The notes: generated by a model not told the origin, from the sequence alone. Numbered from the stretch's first letter, positions 4,666 to 20,564 are shown. The stretch: DNA of 37,366 bases from an uncultured Staphylococcaceae bacterium (GCA_964552695.1 CAZKHP010000002.1:1-37366), one strand, 5' to 3'. Program-made: numbers and translations.

Positions 4666-4694
4666 ATTTTATCATGGAAAAAAAACATTTTCAA
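4666..4694 (-). promoter_or_regulatory. Sigma-A-type promoter of the GGDEF/HD-GYP gene
   Basis: Minus strand: TTGAAA - 17 nt - TAAAAT, with a TG at the extended -10 position (TGATAAAAT). The -35 box lies in the 3' arm of the preceding terminator. Confidence 0.55.
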
Positions 4695-4711
4695 AAATAC
4701 ATGAAAATGTT
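4678..4711 (-). terminator. Intrinsic terminator ending the long riboswitch-controlled operon
   Basis: Minus strand: AACAUUUUCA-(8-nt loop)-UGAAAAUGUU followed by a run of U. It starts 22 nt after the stop at 4733. Confidence 0.75.
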
Positions 4712-4732
4712 AGATAATAAGCGGCAAAAAAA

Positions 4733-5458
4733 TTAATCGTGTTCGGATAGTTCTTGGAAAAGTGTTGAAATGATATTGCCGATCAAGGGTTCGGTTTCAA
4801 GCCCTTTACGTATAAAGTTCAATAATTCATCTTTGTGACCAATGACATAGCTGATGGATTTTAAAGCAATCCAAGGGATATCAAAAGCACGGCAGGCAAG
4901 CGCCACTCCTCCAAGCTCGGTATCAAAGGCATCGATGCCGTCGACATAGGCATAGTGGTGATTAATCAAGCTTTCAGCTTTTACTCGGTCGGTATAAAAC
5001 TTGTTCGTCGACATGACGAATCCACGGGCCAAACTCTTATTGGTCATTTTTTTACCAATAGTTTCAATTTGCAAAAGATAATCATCTTCGGAAAGAAAGA
5101 ATTGCGGCATGGCGGCAATTTGACCGTATTTAATGCCATTTCCCCAGGGGGTAAAATCCACACCTCCCAAGTACACACGGTCGGCCATATAAAGATCGCC
5201 TTGTTTGAGGTTCTCATCAAAGGCGTGAAGCGAGCCCACATTTAAAACAAAATAGGGGTGATACTTATCGATGCAAAGACCGGTGATCATCGCAGCCAAA
5301 GAATTCGATAATCCAGTGGTCGATACAGCAACCTGTTTTCCCGAATACTTTCCTAAAAAAACCTCGGTTTTGCCAGCGATTTTTTCGACATAGGAAATAT
5401 CCATTTTGGTCCGGAAATAGAGAATATCATCATCTGTTGCGCCCAGAATCAGGATCAT
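4733..5458 (-). CDS. MTA/SAH-nucleosidase-like protein (PNP_UDP_1 fold), divergent active site
   Basis: 241-aa ORF. By eye it aligns with Pfs/MtnN: ILILGATDDD vs IGIIGAMEEE, FDTELGG vs VEMEATA, and WIALKSISYV vs FVVVRAISDV. The catalytic Asp of the ISD motif appears to be replaced by Tyr. Its start overlaps the EAL gene stop (TAATG). Confidence 0.6.
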   Translation of the reverse strand: MILILGATDDDILYFRTKMDISYVEKIAGKTEVFLGKYSGKQVAVSTTGLSNSLAAMITGLCIDKYHPYFVLNVGSLHAFDENLKQGDLYMADRVYLGGVDFTPWGNGIKYGQIAAMPQFFLSEDDYLLQIETIGKKMTNKSLARGFVMSTNKFYTDRVKAESLINHHYAYVDGIDAFDTELGGVALACRAFDIPWIALKSISYVIGHKDELLNFIRKGLETEPLIGNIISTLFQELSEHD

Positions 5459-7032
5459 TAAAAGGACTTCCTTTCGAATCGATTTTTCTTGATGAAAATT
5501 ACGTATTCATCGTTGGGTAGAGGCCTACTATAATAATAGCCTTGAATGGCATCACAAGCCAGTTGCTCTTTCAAGATCTGAACCTGCTTCTTGCTTTGAA
5601 TACCTTCGGCGACCGCTTTCATTTCCAAAGCATGGGCCAATTTGATGATGGCTTTAACGACCTCGCGGGCCTTGGCATCCACTTCGATATCATCCAAGAA
5701 AGATTTATCGATTTTGATGGAGTTGACCGGCATGCGTTTGAGTGAGCTCATCGAGGAATAACCGGTTCCAAAGTCATCAATCGCCACTTGAATATTAAGC
5801 CCTTGAATTTGTTTCAGAATGGATAAGATGAAAAGGTTATCTTTTGCGGTTGCCGATTCGGTAATTTCCATTTCCAAAAGGAGCGGGTTTACTTTGTATT
5901 TGTCCAATGTGGCTTTCATAAAGTCGATCAAGTCAGTTTTGAAGATGGATTTCCGGGAAAGGTTAACCGAAATCGGAAGCAAACGTTCGCCCTTAGCTTT
6001 CCAGTTGGCGATATCCTGACACGCCATCTCAAAAACGTAACGGTCGATGGCGATGATCAGCTCTGATTGCTCGGCAAATGGGATGAAAGCGGCGGGAGAA
6101 AGAATTCCTTTCTTCGGGTGGCGCCAACGGATCAATGCTTCGGCCGAGAAGAAACGGTCAAGATTTAAATCGTACTTAGGCTGGTAGAAAAGTTCAAATT
6201 CGTGGTTTTTCATACCTTGGACGATTTCTTCGTAAAGCGGAAGGTCGTTGGTCCCGGCATTTTCAAGGGTTTGTTTATCATAAACGATGATGCCGCCGTG
6301 TTCGTTAAAGTTTCCGTAATCGCACGCCATGAGCGAACGACGGAGCATCTCTTCGGGACTCGTGTTCGGTTCGGTATGGAAATAGACGCCATAGGCAAAA
6401 TCACGGCCGATTTGTAGACTATTTTTTTCCAAACACTTTTTAATGTCCTCTTTGATACGGTCCAAAATCGGGTTGATATCATCCTCGCGCGTATAGCGCA
6501 CATAGAGTAAGAAATTTTCGTTAAAATCGTACCCGTAGAAGGAGTCGGGGATCTCGGCTAAGTTTTCTTCGACCACACCGAAGACCAGGGCGGGTACTTC
6601 GGAACCCATTTTGTAGCCTAATTGACTGATGGCGTCCTTTTTAATTTTATAGATTGAAAAGCTAACAACCGCGCCATGATTAATATCAAAATCGCGGATA
6701 TTTGCAAGGTTTTCTAAAAACTGCGGTTCCGATTTTGCGTTTTTTAAGGTGGTGAATTTTTTCGGGTTAAAACGGACCGAGGTTGTCTTTTTGGCTCGTC
6801 CGATTTCGAGCGAAACCATGATGTAACTTGAAACCAGAAATAAACCTGTCAAAAGTGAAAAAACAAGTGCCCAAGAGGGACGGATGGCCCCATTAAAAAA
6901 GCCCACCAAGAAAAGCACGACATAACTGATCGTTAAGACACCCAAAAAGATCACAAACACGAGGTTGATTGTTTTGCGAAATTTGGGTTCTTCGAACAGC
7001 CTAGTCTTTTTTTGTTTGATCAAGGGGGGCAA
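5458..7032 (-). CDS. Membrane-anchored c-di-GMP phosphodiesterase (degenerate GGDEF-like region plus intact EAL domain)
   Basis: Two N-terminal TM helices. The EAL signature set is present: AEALIRWRHP, SVNLS, EMEITES, AIDDFGTGYSS, IKIDKSF, AEGIQ, QGYYYSRP. The track start is TTG 7032. A second TTG at 7023 has better spacing to AAAGAGG. Either start overlaps the end of the sipW-like gene. Confidence 0.88.
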   Translation of the reverse strand: MPPLIKQKKTRLFEEPKFRKTINLVFVIFLGVLTISYVVLFLVGFFNGAIRPSWALVFSLLTGLFLVSSYIMVSLEIGRAKKTTSVRFNPKKFTTLKNAKSEPQFLENLANIRDFDINHGAVVSFSIYKIKKDAISQLGYKMGSEVPALVFGVVEENLAEIPDSFYGYDFNENFLLYVRYTREDDINPILDRIKEDIKKCLEKNSLQIGRDFAYGVYFHTEPNTSPEEMLRRSLMACDYGNFNEHGGIIVYDKQTLENAGTNDLPLYEEIVQGMKNHEFELFYQPKYDLNLDRFFSAEALIRWRHPKKGILSPAAFIPFAEQSELIIAIDRYVFEMACQDIANWKAKGERLLPISVNLSRKSIFKTDLIDFMKATLDKYKVNPLLLEMEITESATAKDNLFILSILKQIQGLNIQVAIDDFGTGYSSMSSLKRMPVNSIKIDKSFLDDIEVDAKAREVVKAIIKLAHALEMKAVAEGIQSKKQVQILKEQLACDAIQGYYYSRPLPNDEYVIFIKKNRFERKSF

Positions 7033-7810
7033 CCTCTTTCTTGGCTTCTTCTTCCATTTCCTTGCGAATGCGTTCCTTTTCCATTTCTTTGATAATGGAA
7101 AGTTTCTCTTGTTCTTTTATTTTAACAAACTCTTCATCGGATAACTCTTCTTCTGATAAAACTTTTTGGGCCGTTTCATTTTCTTCTGGCCGCATCTTGG
7201 CCGCCTTGACGAAATCCACGATTGAACTGGCAAAAACTGCTCCTAAAGGAATCAACACCAAAAACAGGGTGGTAATCGGGCTAGAGAAGAACTTTGAGAA
7301 AGCTCCCAAAGCGGCGCTCGAAGAGATGACTTTTCCCATGACAAATTCTTCGGGAACAAGATCGGAGTTGGCAAGCGTGCAACCTTGCGTTGGGCAGGTT
7401 TGGGCGTTTAAATTGTCCCCCAAACATTTGAAGGTCAAGGTGCCATCGCCATCATCGATAATTTCAATAATACGGTGAGTGATGATCAAGGAATCGTTGG
7501 TCCGGAAAAAGGTAATAATGTCGCCGTCTTTCGCTTCTGGAGTCGTAGAAGCCACAAGGGTATGCACGTCGACTTTTTTGACGATGACACCATTGCCGAC
7601 CGGAAGTTCGGGCTCCATGGAATCGGTCAAAACGACAAAGGATTGATAACCTAAGAAGGAACTGACACCAAAATTGTTGCGGGCCGAAATGAATCCGGTA
7701 ACTTGGACCACCAGTAACAATCCGACAAATGTTCCCAGAACCCAAGTGAGGATTTTCCCGAACAATGACTTCTTGGTTTTTACTTCTTTTTTCTCAACCT
7801 TTGTTTCCAT
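7001..7810 (-). CDS. sipW: SipW-type (ER/archaeal-type, S26B) signal peptidase I with an extra C-terminal Lys/Glu-rich cytoplasmic tail
   Basis: N-terminal TM helix. Ser box VVLTDSMEPELPVG, His box IITHRIIEI, GDNLN box, and a second TM helix (ITTLFLVLIPLGAVFASSIV). These are followed by a ~60-aa tail EEELSDEEFVKIKEQEKLSIIKEMEKERIRKEMEEEAKKE. RBS GAAGGAACAAATCATG. Confidence 0.82.
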   Translation of the reverse strand: METKVEKKEVKTKKSLFGKILTWVLGTFVGLLLVVQVTGFISARNNFGVSSFLGYQSFVVLTDSMEPELPVGNGVIVKKVDVHTLVASTTPEAKDGDIITFFRTNDSLIITHRIIEIIDDGDGTLTFKCLGDNLNAQTCPTQGCTLANSDLVPEEFVMGKVISSSAALGAFSKFFSSPITTLFLVLIPLGAVFASSIVDFVKAAKMRPEENETAQKVLSEEELSDEEFVKIKEQEKLSIIKEMEKERIRKEMEEEAKKEVAPLDQTKKD

Positions 7811-7822
7811 GATTTGTTCCTT

Positions 7823-9229
7823 CTATTTTTTCGTGGTTATAGCGGCTTTTTTAATCTTCAAACGAGTAGCTTTGAGACGGGCTTGTTCTTCCGCAATACG
7901 TTTGGCAGCAGCAGCCTTGGCGGCTTTGCGTTCGGCCTCCAATAATTTCTTTTTCTTTTGTTCTTCTTGAAGCAAACGTTTCTTTTCCAAGAGAGCTTCT
8001 TTGGCAAGGCGTGCTTTCTCTTTCTCTCGTTCTTTTTTCTCCAAAGCTCTTTGAATGGCCCGTTCCTTTTTCTCCAAAGCAAGGGCGATTTGACGCTCTT
8101 TTTCTTTTTCCTTGCGAATTCTCGCCTTTTCTTTTTCAATCTCACGCTTTTTCTGACGTTGAAGTTGCGCTTCGGTCATTTTGCGTAAAGCGACCGGCTT
8201 GTTTCCCATACGATCCATGAAACGATCGTCGGCGATATCGCGGTCCAAAATGGGTTTGACGAAACGGGGCGAAATTTGATACTTCGAAGCCTTCTTGTCA
8301 TCCAATTTGGCTTTTTCAGTTTTCAAGGTCAGATAGTTGCTCAGAATGAGCGTATAGATTTGGGTGAGGTATTCGTTATTGAAATCCATTTTTCTTTCTT
8401 TAACGGAATAGGTCACGCCTAAGGCGTCGTAACGACCGATGAAAAGCCAAAGCTGATACGCGGCACGATAGTCTGGGTTGCTGCGGATCATGTTGGTTTG
8501 AGAAATTTTACCAGAAACTGGAGGCGCTTTTTTTAAAGCTCTCATAAAAGGAGAGTTCACTAAGTATGTGACGCGTTGTCTTAATGTTTTTAAACGGGCA
8601 AGCAAGTCATCGTTAGCCGCCCTTTGTCCTTCATCGTCGCTGGGAACGACGAGTTTCATCTTGGTTTCAATCTCATATTTTGCTCCGCCGATGGGAACGA
8701 TGGCCTTGAGGGTCATCATGTCGCTGTCGGTGGTGTCGCCGTGTTCGTCAATGTAGCGATAACGCATTTCCACGAACAATGCCAACTTACGAATCAAGGT
8801 CATTACGAAACGGTTTTCGTAAATGGCCAATTCTTCTTCGACGAAGGTACCTAAAATCTTGTCAGGAATGACATCACCTTTGGCGTTGATTTCTTTAACA
8901 AGTTCACTATGCTGGGAAAGGTGTTGAATGGCTTTTGAACCGGTTTTTTTGGCCAATTCGACAGGAACGACGCTGTATTCTTCGCGAATGAATTGGCGTG
9001 GGTTTTTAACAATCCGTTCCAACGGGTGCAGAGAGTGTTCGACTTCGGAAATGAATTCGGCATCGAATCGTTTGCTTTCTTTCCGCATGATGCCACCGAT
9101 TTGGGTCTTGGGGGCAGCCTTTATTTCCTTCAACATGTGCGTAAAAGACTTATCACTCGACACAATCTTGTTGAGTCGTTTGTGATACTTCTTTTTCAGT
9201 TTGTCGACGGTCAATGCTTTGGTTGCCAT
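7823..9229 (-). CDS. Hypothetical soluble protein, partner of the McrB-like NTPase; ~330-aa globular region plus ~130-aa Lys/Glu/Ala/Arg-rich predicted coiled-coil tail
   Basis: 468-aa ORF sitting 11 nt downstream of the AAA+ gene and 12 nt upstream of sipW. No TM segment and no signal peptide. No PD-(D/E)xK motif recognisable by eye. The tail is QRQKKREIEKEKARIRKEKEKERQIALALEKKERAIQRALEKKEREKEKARLAKE... Confidence 0.7.
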   Translation of the reverse strand: MATKALTVDKLKKKYHKRLNKIVSSDKSFTHMLKEIKAAPKTQIGGIMRKESKRFDAEFISEVEHSLHPLERIVKNPRQFIREEYSVVPVELAKKTGSKAIQHLSQHSELVKEINAKGDVIPDKILGTFVEEELAIYENRFVMTLIRKLALFVEMRYRYIDEHGDTTDSDMMTLKAIVPIGGAKYEIETKMKLVVPSDDEGQRAANDDLLARLKTLRQRVTYLVNSPFMRALKKAPPVSGKISQTNMIRSNPDYRAAYQLWLFIGRYDALGVTYSVKERKMDFNNEYLTQIYTLILSNYLTLKTEKAKLDDKKASKYQISPRFVKPILDRDIADDRFMDRMGNKPVALRKMTEAQLQRQKKREIEKEKARIRKEKEKERQIALALEKKERAIQRALEKKEREKEKARLAKEALLEKKRLLQEEQKKKKLLEAERKAAKAAAAKRIAEEQARLKATRLKIKKAAITTKK

Positions 9230-9240
9230 AAAGTTCCTGA

Positions 9241-10771: not shown

Positions 10772-11872
10772 TCACTTTTTCAGGGCTATGGGCTCGTTGG
10801 GTGCCCGATAGCGACCGGTTAATCGAAGCGATAATAAGAAGCTGGCGCGTTCTACGAAATCGTTATTGTCGCGGTCCCACCCTTCGGAATAGACCGTAAC
10901 CACCATGCGTACCGGGGTGTTTTCGGGAAGATACGCAAGCGCGCTTCCGAGAAGTTCTTTGTCCGATAGTTCGGTTGTGGTTTTACTTGTTTCGCGTCCT
11001 AAGACAAGGCCGTTTTCGATGGAAGAATCCAAGTCGATGGGAAGAACGCTACCGTAGGTGGAAGCATTGAAGGTGGTCAAGGGTTCCGTGGCGGTTGCAC
11101 GACCGTTTTCGGAATATACGATTTTGCTTGGATCATCCATTTCCCCGAAGAGAATCTCACGATAAGCATCGATTTCACCGTTGAAATCATAGAAGCCATC
11201 TCGGGCAAGGATGTCGAGGCGCCCGGCAAAGAGTGTAGTCGATGCCGTGTCGGTGTTGGGTTCCCAGATATTAAACCCAAAGGGGGAAAGGAAGCTCACA
11301 CGCATGCTTTTGTGAACATTATTTAAAGCCTCTTCGTTTCCGGCAGGACTTTCAGCGTTCTTTGCACTGTCCGGAAGAAGGGTGGCACTATCATCGAGAT
11401 AGAGATACATATCCATGTTCGACTTGAAATAAAATTCAAATTGGAAGAATCCGGAGTTCGCGATGTTGGAATCCGTGGTGTTGTTATACGTGGTAAATCC
11501 TTCGCGGAGTACTGGCCGTAAGGTGGGGTCGGATAAATCGGTGGATTCATTCAACCAACGGCTTTGGAACATCGAAGAAACAGGGCTTAAGGTGCTCTCG
11601 GGGTTAAAATAGCCGTAATCTACGAGATTTTCTTCACTCAATTCATCAAAGAATTGAATATCTCCGGCATTTCCGAGTTCGGGGTGATTTTCAGGGACGA
11701 TCAGACCGATTTTTAAATCATCCGCTCCGCCATAAGTTACTTTGAACGTATCGAGGGTGACCGCATTGGCAGACGCAAACCAAGCAAAAGTTCCCGTGAT
11801 TAACCCGCTTAAAGCGAGTAAACCGACGACGGAATTGATGATGAGGTTTCTTTTGTTGCGAAGTGCGTTCAT
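10772..11872 (-). CDS. Secreted SipW-signal paralog P7 (366 aa), TasA/camelysin-like fibre-subunit candidate
   Basis: N-terminus MNALRNKRNLIINSVVGLLALSGLITGTFAWFASANAV. C-terminal block VTVYSEGWDRDN, a variant of the W-x-E-G-x-D motif. RBS AAAGGA. Confidence 0.7.
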   Translation of the reverse strand: MNALRNKRNLIINSVVGLLALSGLITGTFAWFASANAVTLDTFKVTYGGADDLKIGLIVPENHPELGNAGDIQFFDELSEENLVDYGYFNPESTLSPVSSMFQSRWLNESTDLSDPTLRPVLREGFTTYNNTTDSNIANSGFFQFEFYFKSNMDMYLYLDDSATLLPDSAKNAESPAGNEEALNNVHKSMRVSFLSPFGFNIWEPNTDTASTTLFAGRLDILARDGFYDFNGEIDAYREILFGEMDDPSKIVYSENGRATATEPLTTFNASTYGSVLPIDLDSSIENGLVLGRETSKTTTELSDKELLGSALAYLPENTPVRMVVTVYSEGWDRDNNDFVERASFLLSLRLTGRYRAPNEPIALKK

Positions 11873-11888: not shown

Positions 11889-12977
11889 TTATTTTTGGGA
11901 AACGAACTTTAAGTCGGCACCGAACGTGGCGGCGATGACCTGAGTGGTACATGCATGGTCCCAACCCTCGAGCCAAATGGTCATATTGATTTCCGCTACG
12001 CCCAGATCGTTGGTTGTGGCCAACGGAGTTCCAAGCGGGCTGTACTTTGATATGGGATTGTAGGTAGCGGTTTTGGGAATGGCATTGACCAGTGGAGAAG
12101 CCCACATAAAGCTTTGAGCTTCATAGAAATATTGGTTTTCTTTGTTCGGTTCAACATAGATTCCGCTGGGTGTGCCCCAATTGTCTTCGGTTAATTCGTT
12201 TTCGAATTCTCCATAGGCGATTTCGTAGTACTTTCCGGCAGCGTTCCAACTGGTGGTGTGATCGTAGATGCCGTTGCCATCGAAATCCATGCGTCCTCCG
12301 ACGTCGATGGACCCGGCTTCTTTGGCGGCCGGAGCAATGATGTCGGTGATTTCATCGGTTTGAATGCCCATGCGCAGAGCTTGGGTGACGTTTTTGGATC
12401 CGATGAAGCGCATGCCATAATCGAAATAGATGTGATAGCCAGCAACTCCTTGAGTATCGTCGTTGGGATTGTCTTGGCTGACACGTGCCATCCGGAACAG
12501 AAGCGAGAAGCCAACATAATTGGAGCGGTTGGCGACCGTATCGATGGGGCGTAACCGTCCCCCGTTAACCGGGGATGAAACGGAGTGCTCGTAAAGCGTG
12601 ATGTCGTCACCTTCCTGATAACTCCCGCTGGTCAAAGGAAGTACTGTATGATTCGCAGAGTATCCCTCGCGCGCGTATAAAAAATCGAACGTTTCGGGCT
12701 CAATCTCCGTATCCGTCCAATAAACATACCCTTCACCGGGTATGTTGTGCGTATCGGGCGTGAAATTATACCGATGCCGTTCTTCTTCGGTCAAAATATG
12801 GCTGACTCGGAAACCCATTTGGAGCGTATCGCCTTCGCCGCGTAAAGTGCCGCTGACGGTTGCGCCCGTGAGGTCTATGACCTCAAACCATGCAAAAGTC
12901 CCCGCGGTTACAGCCAGGGCGGAGATGATGAAAGAAGTCGCCATCAAGGCTATTTTGCTTTTATTTTGCATGATCAA
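11889..12977 (-). CDS. Secreted SipW-signal paralog P6 (362 aa), fibre-subunit candidate
   Basis: N-terminus ...KSKIALMATSFIISALAVTAGTFAWFEVIDL. C-terminal block MTIWLEGWDHAC. The track start is TTG 12977; an ATG lies two codons downstream at 12971. Confidence 0.7.
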   Translation of the reverse strand: MIMQNKSKIALMATSFIISALAVTAGTFAWFEVIDLTGATVSGTLRGEGDTLQMGFRVSHILTEEERHRYNFTPDTHNIPGEGYVYWTDTEIEPETFDFLYAREGYSANHTVLPLTSGSYQEGDDITLYEHSVSSPVNGGRLRPIDTVANRSNYVGFSLLFRMARVSQDNPNDDTQGVAGYHIYFDYGMRFIGSKNVTQALRMGIQTDEITDIIAPAAKEAGSIDVGGRMDFDGNGIYDHTTSWNAAGKYYEIAYGEFENELTEDNWGTPSGIYVEPNKENQYFYEAQSFMWASPLVNAIPKTATYNPISKYSPLGTPLATTNDLGVAEINMTIWLEGWDHACTTQVIAATFGADLKFVSQK

Positions 12978-12998: not shown

Positions 12999-13853
12999 TT
13001 AGGCTTCGCTGGTTTCGTCGAGAAGGGCAGAGATGACCATGCCGAAGAGCATGCTGGCTCCGACAGGAGGCAGGTAGGTGCAGTCGGGATCATCGCCTTC
13101 AAGCCAAATCACGATGGTGTAGCGGATAACGACATCCGGATCAAGATGCAGGTAATTGTAGTTCACGATATTGCTGGCAGATTCAAACACTTCCGCCCGG
13201 ACACTGTTCTCAGGCTTTGAGGCGCTGCAGGTATAGGGAGGAACGCTTAAACCATTTCCGACACACTCGCCATTGATGCGCGTGTTATTGTCATCGTAAA
13301 TTGCATAGTTCGTGGTTTTTGCAAAGGTGCGGTAATTGTGTGTGACTTCTTCACCCACGACATTTTCATAAAGACGCACACGGATGTATTCTTCGATAGG
13401 AACGGCACCCTCAATGATGTTTTCTCCCTGACTTAACGACAAGGTTGCCGAGAAGTCGACCGGAGCATTGCCTTGGTTCTTTAAAAAGAAGGTGTAGGCA
13501 AAATAGGTGGAATACATGAGGATGCCATCCTCATCATAAACATCTCCGTTATGCGATCCCAGACCATTGACATCGTCCAGGACTTCGTGCGCGGGTAAAT
13601 AATCAACTGATTCCGCACGGGCAGCGTCGAGGTTTGAGGCCCGAAGCAAACTCGTTTTTTTGGTAAAGTTCGCGTCCGTCGATATGGTGAGTGACGCGCG
13701 GTTCTGTTCAAGCTCAACGGTGTACCGACCGATATTGGTCCCCAGGTAGGAGATTATGACGAAAGTAGCAATGGTTAATGCGCTTGCGGCGGAAACGATT
13801 GCTGCGATTTTTCGTCTTTTCCTTGTTTGGGCGTACTCAGTTGGGTAGATCAT
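12999..13853 (-). CDS. Paralog P5 (284 aa) with a divergent N-terminus, probably uncleaved; membrane-anchor or base-subunit candidate
   Basis: First gene after riboswitch 1. The N-terminus is MIYPTEYAQTRKRRKIAAIVSAASALTIATFVIISYLG, with a basic stretch and a TM helix; ATFVII replaces GTFAWF. It retains the family C-terminal block IVIWLEGDDPDC and a camelysin-like FFLKNQGNAPVDF strand. Confidence 0.65.
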   Translation of the reverse strand: MIYPTEYAQTRKRRKIAAIVSAASALTIATFVIISYLGTNIGRYTVELEQNRASLTISTDANFTKKTSLLRASNLDAARAESVDYLPAHEVLDDVNGLGSHNGDVYDEDGILMYSTYFAYTFFLKNQGNAPVDFSATLSLSQGENIIEGAVPIEEYIRVRLYENVVGEEVTHNYRTFAKTTNYAIYDDNNTRINGECVGNGLSVPPYTCSASKPENSVRAEVFESASNIVNYNYLHLDPDVVIRYTIVIWLEGDDPDCTYLPPVGASMLFGMVISALLDETSEA

Positions 13854-14018: not shown

Positions 14019-14101
14019 AAATAAAAATAGATGCTAACCAATCATTGCCCGGAACTGGGAAGTACTACTCTCATTCCATTTTTGGCAACTGGCTACCATC
14101 T
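14019..14101 (-). terminator. Expression-platform terminator of riboswitch 1
   Basis: On the minus strand, AGAUGGUAGCCA-GUUGCC (the 3' part of the aptamer) can pair with GGCAAU-(GAU)-UGGUUAGCAUCU. That gives about 18 bp with one G-G mismatch and one 3-nt bulge. The 34-nt apical region has its own GGAAG/CUUCC hairpin. The stem is followed directly by AUUUUUAUUUC. Confidence 0.6.
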
Positions 14102-14162
14102 CTCGTTTGAGTTAGGCCCTATAGCTTTGCGTCGCTAAGTTTCCTTAGTTTTGCTATTGTCA
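14084..14162 (-). promoter_or_regulatory. c-di-GMP-I (GEMM-I) riboswitch aptamer, copy 1
   Basis: The minus-strand RNA is UGACAAUAGCAAAACUAAG-GAAA-CUUAGCGACGCAAAGCUAUAGGGCCUAACUCAAACGAGAGAUGGUAGCCAGUUGCC. It carries the GEMM-I hallmarks: GCAAA(A)C, a hairpin capped by a GAAA tetraloop, ACGCAAAGC, a CCUAAC...GAUGG segment resembling the 11-nt tetraloop receptor, and GGUAGC. By eye it aligns with the Vc2 aptamer. Confidence 0.82.
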
Positions 14163-14168
14163 ACATCC

Positions 14169-14196
14169 ATTATAGAGGTTTTTGCGTTTCTGTCAA
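14169..14196 (-). promoter_or_regulatory. Consensus sigma-A-type promoter driving riboswitch 1 and the ~9.5-kb operon
   Basis: Minus strand: TTGACA (14196..14191) - 16 nt - TATAAT (14174..14169). The aptamer starts within about 10 nt downstream. Confidence 0.75.
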
Positions 14197-14496: not shown

Positions 14497-14538
14497 ATAA
14501 AAAAGCCTGTTCCAGCCTCATTAAAGGTCCAAACAGGC
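14497..14538 (-). terminator. Intrinsic terminator after the small membrane-protein gene
   Basis: Minus strand: GCCUGUU...AACAGGC stem followed by UUUUUUAUU. Confidence 0.65.
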
Positions 14539-14583: not shown

Positions 14584-14970
14584 CTACTTTTTGGCTTCTT
14601 TAGCCTTAGCTTCTTCCATTTCCTTGAGAATCTCTTCGCGGGCTTGTCTTTTGGCTTCAGCAATAAGTTCTTCGTTCGAAAGCGTCGACTTTTTTGCTTT
14701 GTTTTCGTTGTAGAGCGTTTTGATCAGCAAATAGATGTTGAGGAAGAAAAGCGTAATCAACGGAAGGACGATCAGGATGAACATCCAAGCCGGGTTAGCT
14801 TGCAGCCAGGAGATGAACTTCATGAAGGCGCCAGCTTCGGCAGGGATGATGTTGGTGGCGAACATGGCGAACAAGGAGACTGTAAGCAAGAAAACGATGA
14901 CCACAATTTCAGCGACCACTAAAATGGTCGATAGCGACTTATTTTTTCCGGACAGTAATCCTTTACTCAT
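14584..14970 (-). CDS. Small two-TM membrane protein with a Lys/Glu-rich C-terminal tail
   Basis: 128-aa ORF with RBS AGGAGAATTAAAATG. Two hydrophobic helices, then the tail NEELIAEAKRQAREEILKEMEEAKAKEAKK. That tail resembles those of the SipW-like peptidase and the 468-aa protein. Confidence 0.7.
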   Translation of the reverse strand: MSKGLLSGKNKSLSTILVVAEIVVIVFLLTVSLFAMFATNIIPAEAGAFMKFISWLQANPAWMFILIVLPLITLFFLNIYLLIKTLYNENKAKKSTLSNEELIAEAKRQAREEILKEMEEAKAKEAKK

Positions 14971-15012
14971 TTTAATTCTCCTATATGAAAATATATCGCA
15001 TACAATATAACT

Positions 15013-15056
15013 AAAAAAAACTAGGGTGTCAACTGGATAAGCCAGTGAAACCCTAG
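15013..15056 (-). terminator. Strong intrinsic terminator after paralog P4
   Basis: Minus strand: CUAGGGUUUCACUGG-CUUAU-CCAGUUGACACCCUAG followed by eight U. Confidence 0.8.
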
Positions 15057-15088
15057 TAATTTTGTGGAAAATAGGCTATTTGACTAGA

Positions 15089-15997
15089 TTACGCAGCGAC
15101 ACCGTAGATGTCAATGCTGAAATCGAAGACTCCGCCGAGGGCGCCGCCACCAGCAGTGACGTTTTCGCATTCGGGATCTTCGCCTTCAATCCAGGCGCGG
15201 ATCGTGATGTCATCGGAGTAGTCGGGAGTGGCAGCGTCGGTACCATAGAGGGTAACGATCGGTTTGACGTGAGCGGCGGTGGCAAGAGCGGTCGTGGTGT
15301 AAGTGGTCAACGAACCGGCGTGGAAGTTGTCGGTATCATCGAAAGCAGCGGTTTGGGCGACCGAATCAAAACCAGAAACGGTTTTCCAAGTTTTGGCAGC
15401 ATCAGCTTTAACATATTTGTATGCGGCATCGTCAGCATCCGGTGTCCAAATGAAGACTGGGACGTTGGCTTCGTCAAGAATCGCAATGCGGGCGCAGTTA
15501 ACGGCCGCTTCATCTTGAGGATCATCCGCAGTGTGCGGGGTGATCGTGGTGGCTCCGCCAACATAGACGTTCATGTTGCCGGTAGCAACGGAACTTTGAG
15601 AAATCGTCAAGGTAAAGTCGACATAATATCCATCGGCAGCGCCAATACCCGAGGTAAGAAGGGTGGTCACGCTATCGGCCGTGGAAGAATCGGTATCAGC
15701 AGAGTTCCAAATGGGTTTGTAGAAGTTCGCACCATTACCGGAAATATCGGTAATTCTGTGAACGCCGGAAACGGAAATGTTTTGTTCGTCAGCGGATTGG
15801 TGGGCGACAGTGGTCAGTAAGCTGGATTTCCAAGCAACGGTCAAGTCAGATGAGCTCGAATAGACTTCGGCGGACGAATAGTTGATTTGAGCATTACGAA
15901 CGGTTGTGAACCAAGCGAACGTGGAAGCCGAGGCGGCAGCAGCTGTCAGAACGAGCATGCCGGCGGCACTAATTAAAATCTTATTCTTCTTATTCAT
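15089..15997 (-). CDS. Secreted SipW-signal paralog P4 (302 aa), monocistronic; major-subunit candidate
   Basis: N-terminus MNKKNKILISAAGMLVLTAAAASASTFAWFTTVRNA. Mature part is rich in Ala/Thr/Ser/Asp. C-terminal block IRAWIEGEDPEC. Very strong RBS GAGGAGGATTTTATTCATG, with its own promoter and terminator. Confidence 0.75.
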   Translation of the reverse strand: MNKKNKILISAAGMLVLTAAAASASTFAWFTTVRNAQINYSSAEVYSSSSDLTVAWKSSLLTTVAHQSADEQNISVSGVHRITDISGNGANFYKPIWNSADTDSSTADSVTTLLTSGIGAADGYYVDFTLTISQSSVATGNMNVYVGGATTITPHTADDPQDEAAVNCARIAILDEANVPVFIWTPDADDAAYKYVKADAAKTWKTVSGFDSVAQTAAFDDTDNFHAGSLTTYTTTALATAAHVKPIVTLYGTDAATPDYSDDITIRAWIEGEDPECENVTAGGGALGGVFDFSIDIYGVAA

Positions 15998-16138: not shown

Positions 16139-16167
16139 ATTATATATCGGTCTTTTAAAAAGTGCAA
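16139..16167 (-). promoter_or_regulatory. Sigma-A-type promoter of paralog P4
   Basis: Minus strand: TTGCAC - 17 nt - TATAAT. The ~135-nt leader contains two clean hairpins (GUCAAAGU...ACUUUGAC and ACCCUUC...GAAAGGGU). No GEMM-like motif is present. Confidence 0.6.
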
Positions 16168-16321
16168 GTTTTTTGTTTTTTGTTAAAAAGCACTTATTTA
16201 ATCGATACTTTTTCCAAATTTTGTTTTGAATTTTAGATTGTTTGGCTTATTTGATTGTCCACTATTTTCTTACAAATTTCATACAACCCATGGACTTTAT
16301 TCTATACTTATACACACGTGT

Positions 16322-16353
16322 GCGAAAAAAGAAAAAGGATCCCGGAAGGATCC
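16322..16353 (-). terminator. Intrinsic terminator ending the riboswitch-2 operon
   Basis: Minus strand: GGAUCC-UUCCG-GGAUCC followed by UUUUUCUUUUUU. It starts about 30 nt after the stop at 16385. Confidence 0.75.
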
Positions 16354-16384
16354 AAAAAAGTTTGTTAGACAAGTGTCCAAAGAT

Positions 16385-17227
16385 TTAAGAGATATTGACT
16401 GACAACTCGGTGATTGAGAATGAGAGATTTTTATAGACATTGGATGTTCCTTCGACATCGGAAAAGTAATAATCATGACCGCTACTGGTATAAGAATAGG
16501 AATAATACGTTGATGGTGCATTGCTGAATTCGATCGTAAAAAAGAAAATGATTTTATCCGCTGGAACTTCATCAAAATCGAGAACATCTTGCGCGAGGGT
16601 AATGTTGGAAGGTCCGGATGCAGCTGTTTGATTGAAACGATCGGTTTGACTGGTCGATGTCACAAACGCATTGGCTCCGGTTGTAATGCTGCCGCTATTG
16701 CCATCGATCGCCGTGGAATAAACATTGATTGCCTGCGCGAGGTTAATCGGGGTATTGGTGGTTGCGTTGTAGAACGTCGTGGACGGAACCGCAACGTAGT
16801 CGGTGAGCCTTAAAAACACGGTTTTATCAATAGCAAAATCGCCGGTCACTTCCAAAGCATAGGTAAATCGAAGACTGGGGTATTGCGCATTGATGATGAC
16901 GGTTTGAATGCCGTTCAGATAGGGATCTTCGCTGATTGGCAGGAATTGCGTATCGTAATTGTCGACCGTGACGATATCCGAAGGACTAAGAGCAACTTCT
17001 GGGCTTTGGTACCCATTGGGCGTTCCGTTGGAACCATAGTTCTTGGTGAAGTATTTGAGTTCGTAGGAAATATCGCCGGAGGCTTGAACGGTCATGGCGG
17101 TCACCCCGGCCTCCCGTTTAAACGAAAACCAGGCATAGGTCAAGTATAAAAAGGATGTCAAAGAAATCGCCGCCGACAACGTGGTGATCACCAAATTGAT
17201 CTTCAGTTTTTTCGATGTCAATGCCAT
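16385..17227 (-). CDS. Secreted SipW-signal paralog P3 (280 aa)
   Basis: N-terminus MALTSKKLKINLVITTLSAAISLTSFLYLTYAWFSFKRE. It lacks the W-x-E-G-x-D block. It starts 2 nt after the stop of the 759-aa gene. Confidence 0.68.
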   Translation of the reverse strand: MALTSKKLKINLVITTLSAAISLTSFLYLTYAWFSFKREAGVTAMTVQASGDISYELKYFTKNYGSNGTPNGYQSPEVALSPSDIVTVDNYDTQFLPISEDPYLNGIQTVIINAQYPSLRFTYALEVTGDFAIDKTVFLRLTDYVAVPSTTFYNATTNTPINLAQAINVYSTAIDGNSGSITTGANAFVTSTSQTDRFNQTAASGPSNITLAQDVLDFDEVPADKIIFFFTIEFSNAPSTYYSYSYTSSGHDYYFSDVEGTSNVYKNLSFSITELSVNIS

Positions 17228-17229
17228 CG

Positions 17230-19509
17230 TTAGAATCCCGCCAAAACGGCCTGCTGATAATCCGTTGTATTAGTTAGAGGGAAGCTCGTTGAGTTCGTAT
17301 AAAGACCGTGAACGTAAGTGTAAAGCGGATTGCTGCTGAGTTCGCGGTAAAACCGATAGACGGTTCCGGAGGTGTTTTGGTTGTAGTTGGAAACGTTGAG
17401 TTGGACTTTGACGTTGCTGGCTTCGTTCCACGCCACATACGTTCCACTGACAAAGTCAGTGCTGCGATTCGGGAGCGAATATAAATAGTCGATATTAGAG
17501 GTTTGCGAGGACACGTCGCCGTCTTTGGACGTGAAACGGATGTCCATGCGGATGATGTTCAATTCGAAAGCGTCCGCCGTAAAATTGTCATAATTGAAAC
17601 GAACTGTGTCACTTGTATCATTGTCTGTTGCAACCGGCGTATTTTTCCCAACCCCGATGGCAATCAACGGAAAATAGTTTGAAGCGGACCAGAAACTGGA
17701 AGAAGTATTCACGGTAAAGGAGAGGGTTTCGCTGCGTAAAACGCCGCTGGTTGTTCCCGCACCTTGGGTTTTGACGACGGGATGCTGACTGGGATCGTAA
17801 ATCAAAACGTTATCTTGATAGGAAGTTCCTAAGTTCGTCCAGTGATCATCGTAGACAAGGTCATATTTTGTGTTGTTGTTTTCAGAAAGGTTAGGATTGT
17901 AACGATTATAGAGAATTTGAAAGTTGTTGCTTGTCGAAGTGCTGTTGGCAATAAAATCCATCGTCACCGAGATTTCATACGTCGTTGAAGTTCGGGTAAA
18001 CCGACGGACGGAAGAGTTGGTGGTATTCAGCCACAACCAAAGGCCATTTCGCATGGTAGCATCGCGTCCAAACCAGTCGTAGGTATACCAGAAAAGGAAG
18101 CGGTAACGCAGGTACTCTTCACGGGTTCCGACGCCCAAAGGGCTGGTAATCCGTTGAACATAATAGGTATCTGTTCCGCCACCGGGATTGGTGTAAGAGA
18201 CATGGGTATTGGCTAAGTTAGGGTAGAACCGGGTCAAGGAGGCTTCGGTAGAGGTTAAACCATAGGCGGTTGTGGCAGAAATGGCGCGGTTGTATTGGGT
18301 GGTGTAGTTTACAATCGGGTTATTACCTTCATAAACTGAGTAAGAAGTTCCGTCGAGGCCGTTGGCCGGAATGATTTCGTTGAAATCCAACAAGGTTTGG
18401 TCCATGTTCGCGCCGGAATCATCCAAAGGGTTATCGGTGCGGGCGTATCCAATCAAGATACTATACGAACGGGCATTTCGGCCATTGACGGTTATTTTGC
18501 CATTGGATGTTCCGGAAGCATTGGCCCCATACATTCCCAAAAAGGAAGCCGAGCCGTCCAAGTGGCCGACAAACAAGCCGACATAAGTACCGTGGGGATA
18601 CGTCGTATTATGAACGCATTTAAACCACCCGGGGTTGACCGTGGAGCTTCCGACTTCGACCGTGCCGTTGCCTTTAACGTTGATTTGCCAACGTTCCAAG
18701 GTGTACGAGATGATTTGATTGTTATAAAGGGCAAAAACCCGCGCAATTAATGAGACCGGATAGAGCGTTGTTGGTTTTGAGGTATTCGGTTGTCCACAAG
18801 TCCAAACTCCTGAACTCGATTCATAAAGAAGACTCGTATTGGTGCTTTGGTAGACGATGGTGTAACTGGCGTTGTCAGTTCCGGTGACTGTGGTTCTTGG
18901 CACAGTAAAGCGAGCCGGCGTAGCATTGGTAAACGTCAGGTTTCCGATATTGGTCCCTGCAGTGTTGAGTATGGAGTACATAGGGTGAGCACTGGGGGCC
19001 GAAACAGCAGTTCCCACGGTGTTTGCCGTAACGTTGACGGTCGGTGTTTGTAAAACGAGATTCCGAATGGATCCTCCCAAAGCGACATAGCCGAACATAC
19101 CGATATCGTCAGTATTAGCCCCGTTAACCACAAGATTGGTTATTTTATAACCATATCCGTCAAACTGACTGTAGAACGGATAATCTTCATTGCCGATAGG
19201 AACCAACGCATCCCCCGAATAGGTGATATCGCTAGTCATGCGGAAATACGTCGAGCTGCTGAAAACACCTAGAACGTTGAGTTTCTGAAGGGTTCTTAAA
19301 TCGCCCGAATTGCTGATGAGGAAAGGGGCCGTTGACGTTCCTGAACCGCCACTGGTAAACATACTGCTGATGTTGACGGTGTTCGCGTCAATCGGTAATT
19401 CATATTGGTTGGCGTTCAAATAGGCGGCATAGCTAAAAGCCGCTACCGAAACCGCGCCGGTTGCCAACGAGAGGATAAGAATTGCCGAATACAGCGTCGT
19501 TTTTTTCAT
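17230..19509 (-). CDS. Large secreted paralog P2 (759 aa); tip-adhesin candidate with a beta-helix-like N-terminal module
   Basis: N-terminus MKKTTLYSAILILSLATGAVSVAAFSYAAYLNA, a variant of the family motif. It is followed by PFLISNSGDLRTLQKL...FRMTSDITY...PIGNEDYPFYSQFDGYGYKITNLVV...DIGMFGYV..GGSIRNLVL. This pattern opens many GLUG-type/parallel-beta-helix surface proteins. The remainder is rich in Asn/Ser/Thr/Tyr. RBS AAAGGAG. Confidence 0.68.
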   Translation of the reverse strand: MKKTTLYSAILILSLATGAVSVAAFSYAAYLNANQYELPIDANTVNISSMFTSGGSGTSTAPFLISNSGDLRTLQKLNVLGVFSSSTYFRMTSDITYSGDALVPIGNEDYPFYSQFDGYGYKITNLVVNGANTDDIGMFGYVALGGSIRNLVLQTPTVNVTANTVGTAVSAPSAHPMYSILNTAGTNIGNLTFTNATPARFTVPRTTVTGTDNASYTIVYQSTNTSLLYESSSGVWTCGQPNTSKPTTLYPVSLIARVFALYNNQIISYTLERWQINVKGNGTVEVGSSTVNPGWFKCVHNTTYPHGTYVGLFVGHLDGSASFLGMYGANASGTSNGKITVNGRNARSYSILIGYARTDNPLDDSGANMDQTLLDFNEIIPANGLDGTSYSVYEGNNPIVNYTTQYNRAISATTAYGLTSTEASLTRFYPNLANTHVSYTNPGGGTDTYYVQRITSPLGVGTREEYLRYRFLFWYTYDWFGRDATMRNGLWLWLNTTNSSVRRFTRTSTTYEISVTMDFIANSTSTSNNFQILYNRYNPNLSENNNTKYDLVYDDHWTNLGTSYQDNVLIYDPSQHPVVKTQGAGTTSGVLRSETLSFTVNTSSSFWSASNYFPLIAIGVGKNTPVATDNDTSDTVRFNYDNFTADAFELNIIRMDIRFTSKDGDVSSQTSNIDYLYSLPNRSTDFVSGTYVAWNEASNVKVQLNVSNYNQNTSGTVYRFYRELSSNPLYTYVHGLYTNSTSFPLTNTTDYQQAVLAGF

Positions 19510-19521
19510 GGCGTCTCCTTT

Positions 19522-20409
19522 CTATGCGTAAATGGGTGAGTTGGAATACGAAATGTTCAAGTTGAAATCGATACCGAAACGAAGTGGATAGCTTAAAAGC
19601 GTTGGATTAGCCCGAACGAAGGACTGGAATAAGGCTCCATCCATGCTTAATTCGATCATGAGGCTGGTTGCAAAAACAAAGTTCCCGGAAACTTTGGTCG
19701 CGAATTTGGGAATGAAGGATTGATTGGCCAACCCGGTTGTATTCGTCACGGGAGAACCGGAAAGATCACTGGCATCGAAAAGGGTAATACCACTGGTTCG
19801 TTGCCCGGAGGTTCTAAAGAAACTTGCCAGAGTTTTCGCTTCCAAAGCCGGAATTTGCGAAGGGAAAGCCGAAACCATCGGGCTTGAAGGACTATTGTCA
19901 ACTGCCACATAACGGTAATTGAAAGGGTAAGCCGTTGAAAAATTGAGCTCGCTGGACGTTGCGGTGGGAATGGAGACATATTGCATATTGGCAGTCACAT
20001 AACCATAACGGTCGGGTTGGATGAAACGAAGTTCGAGATAATAAGTCGGTAACCCCGGAACGTAATAAGCGTTTTCGTTGTAATAAGCTCGCGTCAAAAG
20101 GTAATCGGTTGCAAGAGCATTTGAAAAGTCAACATTCACTTGGCCGTTGGTCAGTGAGCTTTGGGTAACGTTCAATCGATCGGTTTGATCGACATAATAA
20201 GCTACTTCGGAAGTACTGGGAGTTTCGCCATAGCGCCGTTCATAAATGTGGGCTTCGATGGTTACTTCGGAATTTCCCGTTGAAAGAGCCACCATGTTGG
20301 TGACGGAGCGACTGTATTTGATCCACGCAAAAGTAGCGCTTGTTAATGCAAGTGCACTGGCCACAAGGGCAATGGTGGTTGTCATAATCAGTTTGCTTTG
20401 TGGTTTCAT
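19522..20409 (-). CDS. Secreted SipW-signal paralog P1 (295 aa), first gene after riboswitch 2
   Basis: N-terminus MKPQSKLIMTTTIALVASALALTSATFAWIKYSRS. The RBS AAGAGG lies immediately after the riboswitch terminator U-tract. Confidence 0.68.
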   Translation of the reverse strand: MKPQSKLIMTTTIALVASALALTSATFAWIKYSRSVTNMVALSTGNSEVTIEAHIYERRYGETPSTSEVAYYVDQTDRLNVTQSSLTNGQVNVDFSNALATDYLLTRAYYNENAYYVPGLPTYYLELRFIQPDRYGYVTANMQYVSIPTATSSELNFSTAYPFNYRYVAVDNSPSSPMVSAFPSQIPALEAKTLASFFRTSGQRTSGITLFDASDLSGSPVTNTTGLANQSFIPKFATKVSGNFVFATSLMIELSMDGALFQSFVRANPTLLSYPLRFGIDFNLNISYSNSPIYA

Positions 20410-20422
20410 GGGACCTCTTCGG

Positions 20423-20467
20423 AAATAAAAAAGCAGCCGCTACCATTCACTTAGGCAACTGGCTACC
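20423..20467 (-). terminator. Expression-platform terminator of riboswitch 2
   Basis: Minus strand: GGUAGCC(A)GUUGCC-UAAGUGAAU-GGUAGCGGCUGCU, about 13 bp with one bulged A, followed by UUUUUAUUU. The 5' arm is the 3' end of the aptamer. Confidence 0.75.
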
Positions 20468-20532
20468 TCTTAATCTTTGGAGGCCCTTTAGCTTTGCGTC
20501 GCTAGATTACTCTAGGTTTGCTATTTACTAAC
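20454..20532 (-). promoter_or_regulatory. c-di-GMP-I (GEMM-I) riboswitch aptamer, copy 2
   Basis: The minus-strand RNA is GUUAGUAAAUAGCAAACCUAGA-GUAA-UCUAGCGACGCAAAGCUAAAGGGCCUCCAAAGAUUAAGAGGUAGCCAGUUGCC. It has the same conserved blocks as copy 1: AAUAGCAAA, CGACGCAAAGCUA, AGGGCCU and GGUAGCCAGUUGCC. The first hairpin shows compensatory changes (CUAGA/UCUAG here vs CUAAG/CUUAG in copy 1). Confidence 0.82.
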
Positions 20533-20535
20533 TTG

Positions 20536-20564
20536 ATTATATAGATGCGATATAAAGTTGTCAA
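20536..20564 (-). promoter_or_regulatory. Consensus sigma-A-type promoter driving riboswitch 2
   Basis: Minus strand: TTGACA (20564..20559) - 17 nt - TATAAT (20541..20536). The -35 box lies 5 nt after the stop codon of the upstream 1000-aa signalling gene. Confidence 0.75.

Follow-up and report, generated by a model that had tools for sequence, protein, structure and literature searches.

The minus strand of a 37,366-nt stretch of DNA from an uncultured Staphylococcaceae bacterium (GCA_964552695.1, CAZKHP010000002.1:1-37366), hereafter called the window, carries between positions 4678 and 20564 a locus that encodes seven secreted or membrane-anchored proteins (P1 to P7), a SipW-type signal peptidase, an McrB-family GTPase with an McrC-like partner, a membrane protein of 128 amino acids (aa), an EAL phosphodiesterase and a nucleosidase-like protein, and that contains two aptamers for cyclic diguanylate (c-di-GMP). 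The locus is a genuine feature, well beyond chance, and we consider it probable that it encodes a c-di-GMP-induced surface fibre (pilus) system of the CoCoPALM type, the name given by Bell et al. (eLife 2024, PMC11090510) to McrBC homologs linked to signal peptidases.

Seventeen open reading frames (ORFs) follow one another on the minus strand from position 140 to 23674, and 13 of them lie within the locus; a preliminary description, made from the sequence, had counted 15 minus-strand genes, a figure reached only if both flanking c-di-GMP genes are included. The transcription units are P1-P2-P3, P4 alone, and a core operon composed of P5-P6-P7-McrB-McrC-SipW-EAL-MTAN, where MTAN denotes a gene resembling those for 5'-methylthioadenosine/S-adenosylhomocysteine (MTA/SAH) nucleosidases. 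The tight packing described for the core operon is borne out by gaps of 21, 16, 10, 11 and 12 nt on the way from P5 through P6, P7, McrB and McrC to SipW, the signal-peptidase gene beginning 12 nt downstream of the McrC-like gene. The c-di-GMP turnover genes were found as well, with an EAL gene inside the locus, a gene for a GGDEF and HD-GYP protein on one flank and a second EAL gene on the other (Table 1).

Two c-di-GMP-I riboswitches precede the accessory and core operons

When a covariance-model check was run with Rfam RF01051, for which the gathering score is 35 bits, both predicted GEMM-I aptamers were recovered at full length (model positions 1-87) with scores of 67.1 and 57.1 bits, respectively. 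As proposed earlier, a promoter that matches the sigma-70 consensus at 12 of 12 positions lies directly 5' of each aptamer, and a terminator hairpin with a U-run lies 3' of each. These two were the only 12/12 matches in the 16.4 kb scanned; because promoter-like sites overall were no more numerous than in shuffled sequence, the promoter signal consists in the quality of the matches and their position right before the aptamers and not in their number. Folding of the leaders with ViennaRNA showed in both cases that the aptamer 3' strand (...GGUAGCCAGUUGCC...) serves as the 5' arm of the terminator and that a U-run follows the hairpin. Aptamer and terminator are therefore mutually exclusive, so that ligand binding should permit read-through, and we infer from this folding that both riboswitches are ON switches. 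In the leaders of P4 and of the gene for the 128-aa protein, no further riboswitch was detected by a permissive Rfam scan.

Of 18 related loci scanned (related loci are numbered from L001 onwards), 16 have a c-di-GMP-I aptamer directly upstream of their P5-like gene, including those of Acholeplasma granularum, Izemoplasmatales and a metagenome-assembled genome (MAG) of the Christensenellaceae, and a further aptamer is often present upstream of accessory genes. Tandem aptamers before the anchor gene occur in A. granularum (L058, 6184-6258 and 6347-6422) and in the Christensenellaceae MAG (L076, 4802-4876 and 4908-4982), which suggests a sharper, more digital response in those hosts; the locus of A. 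granularum ATCC 19168 carries three riboswitches. The predicted ON platforms, together with the riboswitch found before the operon in most of the relatives, support the gating by c-di-GMP that had been postulated.

A SipW-type peptidase and its putative substrates

The peptidase belongs to the SipW type (endoplasmic reticulum (ER)/archaeal type), as had been suspected: it scored 51.9 bits against TIGR02228 (cut-off 51.85) and displays a Ser-His set consisting of S64 (SMEP), H112 (THR) and D132 (GDN), and with the bacterial-type model TIGR02227 it remained below the cut-off (23.7 versus 47). It is not an ortholog of Bacillus subtilis SipW, since it missed the cut-off of the Bacillus SipW equivalog model (67 versus 190 bits). 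Across 83 related loci, the SipW-site motif was found in 171 ORFs at the end of the hydrophobic region, with the consensus T(133)-[Y57/F49/V29/L24]-A(156)-W-[F103/Y47], where the numbers are counts among the 171 ORFs.

The preliminary description spoke of seven paralogs with a common signal-peptide end, of which a part could be maintained. Six of the proteins carry the motif, P2 in a degenerate form, but P5 has no cleavage site and possesses a stronger hydrophobic helix (residues 15-38) that follows a run of basic residues. When signal peptides were removed before iterated hidden Markov model (HMM) searches, the mature domains of P4, P5, P6 and P7 detected one another, with E values from 1e-6 to 1e-53 between window proteins, but P1, P2 and P3 matched neither these nor each other and recovered only their own orthologs. 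With full-length jackhmmer queries, P1 and P3 had merged with P4-P7, a result that is due to the signal peptide alone because it was absent from the runs without signal peptides. In a comparison with hhalign, the region aligned between the P7 and P5 families (probability 91.5%, E 8.5e-7) comprised the two final strands together with the C-terminal motif W-[LI]-E-G-x-D-x-x-C, which is common to P4, P5 and P6; the variant of P7, YSEGWDRDN, lacks the Cys. Judged by their sequences, the seven are four true paralogs, one of which is an uncleavable anchor, and three unrelated proteins with a common processing signal.

The membrane-anchor role that had been assigned to P5 agrees with these data, as P5 combines homology to P4, P6 and P7 with a signal-anchor that cannot be cleaved. 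The assignment of P1-P3 to a fibre tip was a guess and, in that form, is unsupported. Accessory proteins vary from locus to locus, as expected of tip or adhesin parts under diversifying pressure. Two features only, the monocistronic, terminator-bounded unit and the composition of the protein, suggest P4 as candidate major subunit. A conserved acidic loop, EG-D-D-P-D, may bind cations, by analogy with calcium-dependent cannulae.

P2 gave no family match in Pfam and nothing in a PDB sequence search. By eye, its segment ...PFYSQFDGYGYKITNLVV...IGMFGYVALGGSIRNLVL... resembles the GLUG-type repeat of large adhesins and IgA proteases, which Pfam did not report at E<=0.1.

Two other kinds of pilus were considered and rejected. 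Type IV pilins do not fit a motif that lies C-terminal to the hydrophobic segment, an S26-type peptidase and a locus with no prepilin peptidase. Similarly, neither a sortase gene in the locus nor, by inspection, a C-terminal sorting signal was found as would be required for sortase pili; the only C-terminal hydrophobic stretch, that of P5, is a predicted beta-strand.

A charged tail motif common to SipW and the 128-aa membrane protein

SipW ends in a charged cytoplasmic tail of 65 residues, and a charged helical motif, LSxEE..K.LK.ELL.EM, terminates both SipW (tail-coding end 7001-7204) and the 128-aa protein. This motif reads IIKEMEKERIRKEMEEE and REEILKEMEEAKAKE in the window and LSEEDRERLKKELLNEM and LSEEEKEKLRQELLKDL in L002 (6370-6765 and 13080-13814), and it varies in parallel between loci. 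In an iterated HMM search the 128-aa protein merged with the SipW family. Most lineages outside the window's clade have a second SipW-like gene directly upstream of the McrB homolog (for example L066 9237-9953, L057 9245-9946, L058 9286-9969 and L063 8902-9672), in which the SDSM and N(T/S)HR motifs are kept and the tail is similar, and the GTPase pair is thus flanked by two peptidases. From this likeness in sequence, the tails of SipW and of the 128-aa protein appear as candidate docking sites for a cytoplasmic coiled-coil complex of McrB and McrC. The C-terminal tail of B. subtilis SipW reportedly has a signalling role that is independent of peptidase activity.

An McrB/McrC pair embedded in the operon

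The McrB-family NTPase with a partner gene that had been noticed between subunit genes and sipW was confirmed by profile searches. In 22 homologs, Walker A (GISGTGKTS), Walker B (LDE) and the signature NNDD (N347-N348-D349-D350) are invariant, and the profile of these homologs matches E. coli McrB (6hz4_A, E 4.8e-5) over the AAA+ core; a match to NF008457 was obtained at E 1.2e-4. The signature can be read as NxD plus a second D, in the manner of CoCoPALM, or as NxxD, and the ungapped HMM alignment to NTAD fits NxxD. Relatives of the GTPase make up >8000 protein clusters at 90% identity, and the best 120 are 53-94% identical over their full length. Residues 188-307 strongly match the PADLOC defence-candidate model PDC-M26A (2e-42), as might be expected of a CoCoNuT-like clade, and because of this match defence pipelines may mislabel a pilus-linked GTPase as a defence gene.

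The partner is a nuclease-less McrC homolog. Although the window protein itself has no match to DUF2357 (PF09823, the McrC N-terminal domain), 13 of 24 aligned homologs do (best E 2.4e-12), and it is 21-44% identical to these matching homologs. Its C-terminal 130 aa form a K/E/R-rich helix, and comparison of the family profile with PDB sequences yielded coiled-coil noise only. At default thresholds nothing in Pfam or NCBIfam was matched by the McrB and McrC proteins of the window, and no nuclease, HEPN or DNA-binding family was found in either protein or in the homolog sets by Pfam, NCBIfam and PDB searches.

The novelty that had been claimed for the embedded NTPase has been overtaken by Bell et al. 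(PMC11090510), who already named the linkage of McrBC with signal peptidases. In three sentences, with the analysis deferred, these authors proposed a role in pilus assembly for the CoCoPALM clade of McrBC, and they called the N-terminal transmembrane and coiled-coil architecture of the GTPase FtsB-like. No follow-up paper on CoCoPALM was present in the literature searched. The locus shares with CoCoPALM the McrB-family GTPase with its N-terminal transmembrane and coiled-coil fusion, a nuclease-less DUF2357 McrC homolog with a coiled coil, an adjacent gene of the signal-peptidase family and the link with pilus assembly, and we regard it as a member of this named but uncharacterised and experimentally unstudied class. 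As far as found, the CoCoPALM description does not contain the T-[FY]-A-W-[FY] subunit family, the anchored paralog, the control by c-di-GMP-I riboswitches, the tail motif common to SipW and the small protein, or the concentration in Acholeplasma-like wall-less Bacilli. Added here are therefore the structure of the substrate family, the anchored paralog, riboswitch control with its predicted ON logic, the tail motif and the host range.

Conservation and host range

In a genome scan, relatives of the GTPase were found in at least 579 GTDB species. Their hosts include the cultured strain A. granularum ATCC 19168, Acholeplasmataceae, Anaeroplasmataceae, Izemoplasmatales, Ca. Coproplasma and Ca. 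Enteromonas, and also many "Bacilli/Erysipelotrichaceae" MAGs and some Clostridia (Christensenellaceae, Acutalibacteraceae, Faecousia). Thirty-one related loci were well flanked, with at least 6 kb upstream and at least 4.5 kb downstream. The co-occurrence that the preliminary description had asked about is complete in this set: each of the 31 has McrC-like, SipW-like and P5-like genes together with 2-8 genes of the subunit family, and the signal-peptidase-family gene, present in 31/31, often occurs in two copies. The succession anchor-subunits-(SipW)-McrB-McrC-SipW is encountered repeatedly in lineages from Acholeplasma to Clostridia, and the complete 13-gene order of the window recurs in L001-L003, where Pfam also calls EAL at the equivalent position. 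With the P5-family profile, a search of 1.84 billion representatives yielded 1368 clusters (50% identity). No publication that connects Acholeplasma with SipW/TasA, pili or c-di-GMP riboswitches came to light in literature searches.

A Bacilli-type locus (53-54% identity) also occurs in records titled Escherichia coli, Bacteroides uniformis, Hallerella sp. and Paludibacteraceae; these "cleanbin" records (L016, L034, L008, L023) are almost certainly mislabelled or contaminated bins.

Likeness to other systems

With the B. subtilis tapA-sipW-tasA and B. cereus sipW-tasA-calY operons, the locus has in common an ER/archaeal-type peptidase encoded beside its substrates, signal-peptide ends of the form G/T-aromatic-A-aromatic-F, a number of paralogous substrates plus a single accessory or anchoring protein, and a predicted jelly-roll subunit resembling the TasA fibre. 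It differs from them in having no Peptidase_M73 match at threshold, 2-8 subunit genes per locus, a transmembrane paralog instead of TapA as anchor, an McrBC-derived GTPase pair inside the operon, riboswitches in place of control by SinR/Spo0A, and hosts that include wall-less bacteria. The archaeal proteins AbpA, AbpX and CanX belong to the TasA superfamily, and their genes commonly adjoin those for signal peptidase I and TasA-like paralogs (PMC9245690, PMC12518558). AbpA (7ueg_A) has the top probability (0.97) in the Foldseek list of P5, but no link to these archaeal systems was found at the sequence level, and they have no associated NTPase.

Canonical McrBC and CoCoNuT systems resemble the GTPase pair in the AAA+ GTPase fold, Walker A/B, the N-x(x)-D signature and the DUF2357 partner, which in McrBC activates the hexamer. 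In contrast to them, the pair is membrane-anchored, lies in a secretion and processing operon, and has no detectable DNA-binding domain, PD-(D/E)xK nuclease or HEPN nuclease.

In Clostridioides difficile and its relatives, c-di-GMP riboswitches are located upstream of adhesin and pilus genes. A position of such riboswitches upstream of surface-appendage or adhesin genes of Bacillota is shared with the locus; here the riboswitches are predicted ON switches of class I, in tandem in several relatives, and the cargo is a SipW/McrBC system instead of type IV pili or sortase substrates.

A putative c-di-GMP-induced fibre and how it may be built

According to the proposed mechanism, ligand-bound GEMM-I aptamers would block the terminators at high c-di-GMP, and the variable accessory or adhesin unit P1-P2-P3 as well as P5-P6-P7-McrB-McrC-SipW-EAL-MTAN would be induced from their consensus promoters, P4 being monocistronic. 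The subunits would be exported via Sec and stay tethered by their signal peptides until the SipW-type peptidase cuts past T-[FY]-A, directly before W-[FY]. The freed N-terminal strand might then fill the jelly-roll of the neighbouring subunit, and by analogy with TasA and the archaeal bundling pili polymerisation would proceed by donor-strand complementation. P5, the paralog that lacks the cleavage site and has a transmembrane helix, would fix the fibre in the membrane; such anchoring matters in wall-less Acholeplasma-like hosts because neither peptidoglycan nor a sortase route is available there. The membrane-anchored McrB GTPase, presumably a hexamer, and the nuclease-less coiled-coil McrC may make up a platform on the cytoplasmic side, docked to the charged tails of SipW and the 128-aa protein, with GTP hydrolysis gating or driving processing and assembly. 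The co-transcribed EAL enzyme would lower c-di-GMP, which is probably a negative feedback.

Structural predictions bear on this proposal. The AlphaFold model of P5 (pLDDT of 70, the predicted score in the local distance difference test; 24 sequences) is an all-beta sandwich. In its Foldseek list, rank 4 falls to the TasA fibre (8aur_A; E 1.3e-3, probability 0.90, template modelling (TM) scores 0.26/0.30) and rank 5 to AbpA of the archaeal bundling pilus (7ueg_A; E 1.5e-3, the list's highest probability, TM 0.24/0.33). Confidence is low past the signal peptide or anchor (pLDDT <50 at residues 1-50 of P7 and 38-51 of P5), as expected of a donor strand. In hhalign, the TFA/WF site falls in register with TWA/AF of TasA, with a probability no higher than 18%. 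Among Pfam families, Peptidase_M73 was matched by the largest number of members of the subunit set, namely 3 of 143 from related loci, all sub-threshold, with a best match of 18.9 bits (cut-off 22.5; E 1.4e-3) over residues 10-84, that is, past the signal peptide; P1-P7 themselves gave no match to this family (PF12389) at E<=0.01. The sole match of the P7 N-terminus was TIGR04088, the SipW-dependent-type signal peptide (cognate_SipW), with 14.3 bits (cut-off 19; E 0.035), and none of the other N-termini matched this model. The P7 family profile matched no PDB sequence.

Several results weigh against the fibre as proposed. P1-P7 have no Pfam or NCBIfam match at threshold, and when the P4, P5, P6 and P7 families were compared in hhalign with TasA (sequence 100% identical to 8AUR), signal peptides alone were aligned and no mature-domain similarity was seen. 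Both models are of medium quality (pLDDT 68-70). The TM-scores of P5 to TasA and AbpA are only 0.24-0.33, with ephrin-receptor and integrin jelly-rolls about as good, and the P7 model (pLDDT 68, 16 sequences) retrieved nothing below E 0.3 in Foldseek, 8aur_A and 7ueg_A appearing only at E~2. Export, cleavage and polymerisation are predicted steps, and the GTPase has no role based on precedent, because TasA, AbpA and cannula fibres need no NTPase. Its hydrophobic stretch (residues 51-87) may be one helix or a hairpin, the topology being uncertain, and its N-terminus has no DivIC/FtsB match in Pfam at E<=0.1. As to the TasA-like fold foreseen in the preliminary description, the model of P5 is weakly like TasA and AbpA, and that of P7 is without significant match; the subunit fold is consistent with a TasA-superfamily jelly-roll, which is weakly supported and not demonstrated.

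Alternative readings

The SipW substrates could also be separate surface adhesins or an S-layer-like or matrix coat, set free or displayed once SipW has cleaved them, with P5 as a membrane-bound member of the family. Strand exchange is a prediction only, the mature domains of P1-P3 are mutually unrelated, the structural matches of P5 are generic jelly-rolls that include the receptor or adhesin domains of FnBPA, Epa and PapG, and the subunit genes diverge fast, in the way of adhesins (16 and 28 word-search relatives, versus >8000 for McrB). We nevertheless judge this reading unlikely, as it has to account for loci of 2-8 paralogs in which the motif after the signal peptide is strictly conserved, for an anchor paralog whose only loss is the cleavage site, and for a candidate major subunit that is monocistronic and terminator-bounded. 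The TasA fibre and the AbpA pilus, moreover, are among the five best Foldseek matches of P5, and all SipW-dedicated substrate families that have been characterised make fibres (PMC9674648, PMC9245690, PMC12518558). Still further from our preference is a McrBC or CoCoNuT-type defence module that stands beside the surface genes or is co-regulated with them, for instance in phage-triggered surface remodelling. The similarity of the GTPase to E. coli McrB and to PDC-M26A and the identity of DUF2357 as the McrC N-terminal domain would agree with such a module, which we hold to be very improbable in view of a membrane-anchored GTPase, two proteins in which no nuclease, HEPN or DNA-binding domain was found, and a partner, a SipW and a P5 without PADLOC match. 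The fixed order in a riboswitch-controlled operon with gaps of 10-12 nt, from Acholeplasmatales and Izemoplasmatales to Clostridia, is unlike a mobile island, and the high conservation contrasts with the usual quick turnover of defence genes. A defence island inserted by chance would not explain why the parts co-occur in 31/31 loci in a fixed gene order, and this reading was rejected.

Even if a fibre is made, the function of the GTPase may be conceived in different ways. As a true assembly (or retraction) motor it would represent a new class of NTP-driven pilus machinery, composed of a restriction-enzyme motor and a signal peptidase: a membrane-anchored, McrC-activated McrB hexamer on the SipW tail would couple GTP hydrolysis to hand-over-hand processing, each signal peptide being cut only once the donor strand of the next tethered subunit has been inserted, so that the fibre would never leave the membrane. 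The idea is a doubtful one, to be advanced tentatively. Alternatively, polymerisation could be spontaneous and the McrB/McrC pair a regulator or positioning scaffold for SipW, for example by placing it at the division site via an FtsB-like segment or by exerting a GTP-dependent checkpoint on its tail. TasA-superfamily fibres do polymerise without NTP (PMC9674648, PMC12518558), and the transmembrane and coiled-coil architecture has been described as FtsB-like (PMC11090510). The charged tails common to SipW and the 128-aa protein hint at docking rather than translocation. The signalling role said to reside in the B. subtilis SipW tail, independently of peptidase activity, would also suit a regulator. 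However, Walker A/B and sensor residues are invariant and full-length identity amounts to 53-64% across orders, which argues for a strongly selected enzymatic cycle, and the GTPase gene is present in 31/31 loci. Altogether, a pair that acts only as a regulator or scaffold seems rather improbable to us.

If the CoCoPALM-type fibre reading is true, the motor of a restriction enzyme (McrBC) has been put to use in building or controlling a TasA-type fibre, an unexpected origin for pilus machinery, and this would be the first NTPase tied to an otherwise self-assembling class of fibres. The system is common, and many of its hosts are Acholeplasma-like, RFN20/RF39-type and Oscillospirales bacteria of gut and rumen, about whose cell surface very little is known. 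It suggests a way in which a cell without a wall may retain a fibre, and it provides a concrete output for c-di-GMP signalling in these lineages; should the GTPase be a motor, the fibre would be the main c-di-GMP-controlled organelle for adhesion or motility of wall-less Acholeplasma-like bacteria. The system is directly testable, since the locus is present in a cultured strain, A. granularum ATCC 19168.

Table 1. Genes and regulatory features of the locus and its flanks, in window coordinates.
Feature	Position	Strand	Remarks
Promoter of accessory-subunit operon	20536..20564	-	TTGACA-17-TATAAT, 12/12; sigma-70 consensus scan
c-di-GMP-I aptamer no. 2	20451..20532	-	RF01051, 57.1 bits
Expression platform of riboswitch 2	20427..20471	-	hairpin 5' arm is the aptamer 3' strand, then U6; predicted ON
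P1, 295 aa, secreted	19522..20409	-	signal-peptide end ...SATFAWI; mature domain unrelated to P4-P7
P2, 759 aa, large secreted protein	17230..19509	-	degenerate site AFSYAAY; candidate adhesin
P3, 280 aa, secreted	16385..17227	-	...LTYAWF; mature domain unrelated to P4-P7
Terminator-like hairpin	16337..16353	-	closes P1-P2-P3 unit
P4, 302 aa, subunit	15089..15997	-	...ASTFAWF; C-terminal WIEGEDPEC; monocistronic, GGAGG ribosome-binding site
Strong intrinsic terminator	15012..15057	-	3' of P4; overlaps 11/12 promoter-like site 15004-15032
128-aa protein, two transmembrane segments	14584..14970	-	cytoplasmic tail with the charged-helix motif of the SipW tail
Terminator	14499..14538	-	3' of the gene for the 128-aa protein
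Promoter of core operon	14169..14196	-	TTGACA-16-TATAAT, 12/12; sigma-70 consensus scan
c-di-GMP-I aptamer no. 1	14081..14165	-	RF01051, 67.1 bits
Expression platform of riboswitch 1	14023..14101	-	terminator uses aptamer 3' strand; predicted ON switch
P5, 284 aa, P4/P6/P7 homolog	12999..13853	-	uncleaved N-terminal transmembrane anchor; motif YTIVIWLEGDDPDC
P6, 362 aa, subunit	11889..12977	-	...AGTFAWF; WLEGWDHAC
P7, 366 aa, subunit	10772..11872	-	...TGTFAWF; YSEGWDRDN
McrB-family AAA+ GTPase, 506 aa	9241..10761	-	hydrophobic anchor 51-87, coiled coil ~93-125
McrC-like partner, 468 aa	7823..9229	-	DUF2357-type N-terminal region, long K/E/R-rich helical tail
SipW-type (ER/archaeal-type) signal peptidase I, 269 aa	7001..7810	-	two transmembrane segments, charged cytoplasmic tail
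Membrane EAL phosphodiesterase	5458..7032	-	overlaps sipW end
MTA/SAH-nucleosidase-like gene	4733..5458	-	conserved final operon gene in the window's clade
5TM-PAS-GGDEF-HD-GYP protein (TM, transmembrane segments)	2624..4675	-	flank; c-di-GMP synthesis and breakdown
EAL-domain protein, 1034 aa	20570..23674	-	flank; conserved beside accessory operon

Neighbouring genes and minor observations

The EAL ORF of the core operon starts with TTG and overlaps the end of sipW by 32 nt (7001-7032), and its true start may be further downstream. The MTA/SAH-nucleosidase-like gene, with which the operon likewise ends in L001, L002 and L003, encodes a product with a weak match (E 2.3e-9) to NF033570, the model of the Spiroplasma cytoskeletal fibril protein Fib. 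A lysine riboswitch (L024, 281-450) and a fluoride riboswitch (L011, 3260-3336) were encountered near related loci and are unconnected with the system. On the plus strand of the window, three large ORFs of 1026, 880 and 503 aa extend over positions 28702-36007; no family match was obtained for the 1026-aa and 503-aa ORFs, and CBM_4_9 and bacterial surface Ig-like domains were recognised in the 880-aa protein, which has an unusually high GC content at third codon positions (GC3 of 0.64). This trio may constitute a separate cluster for glycan-binding surface proteins.

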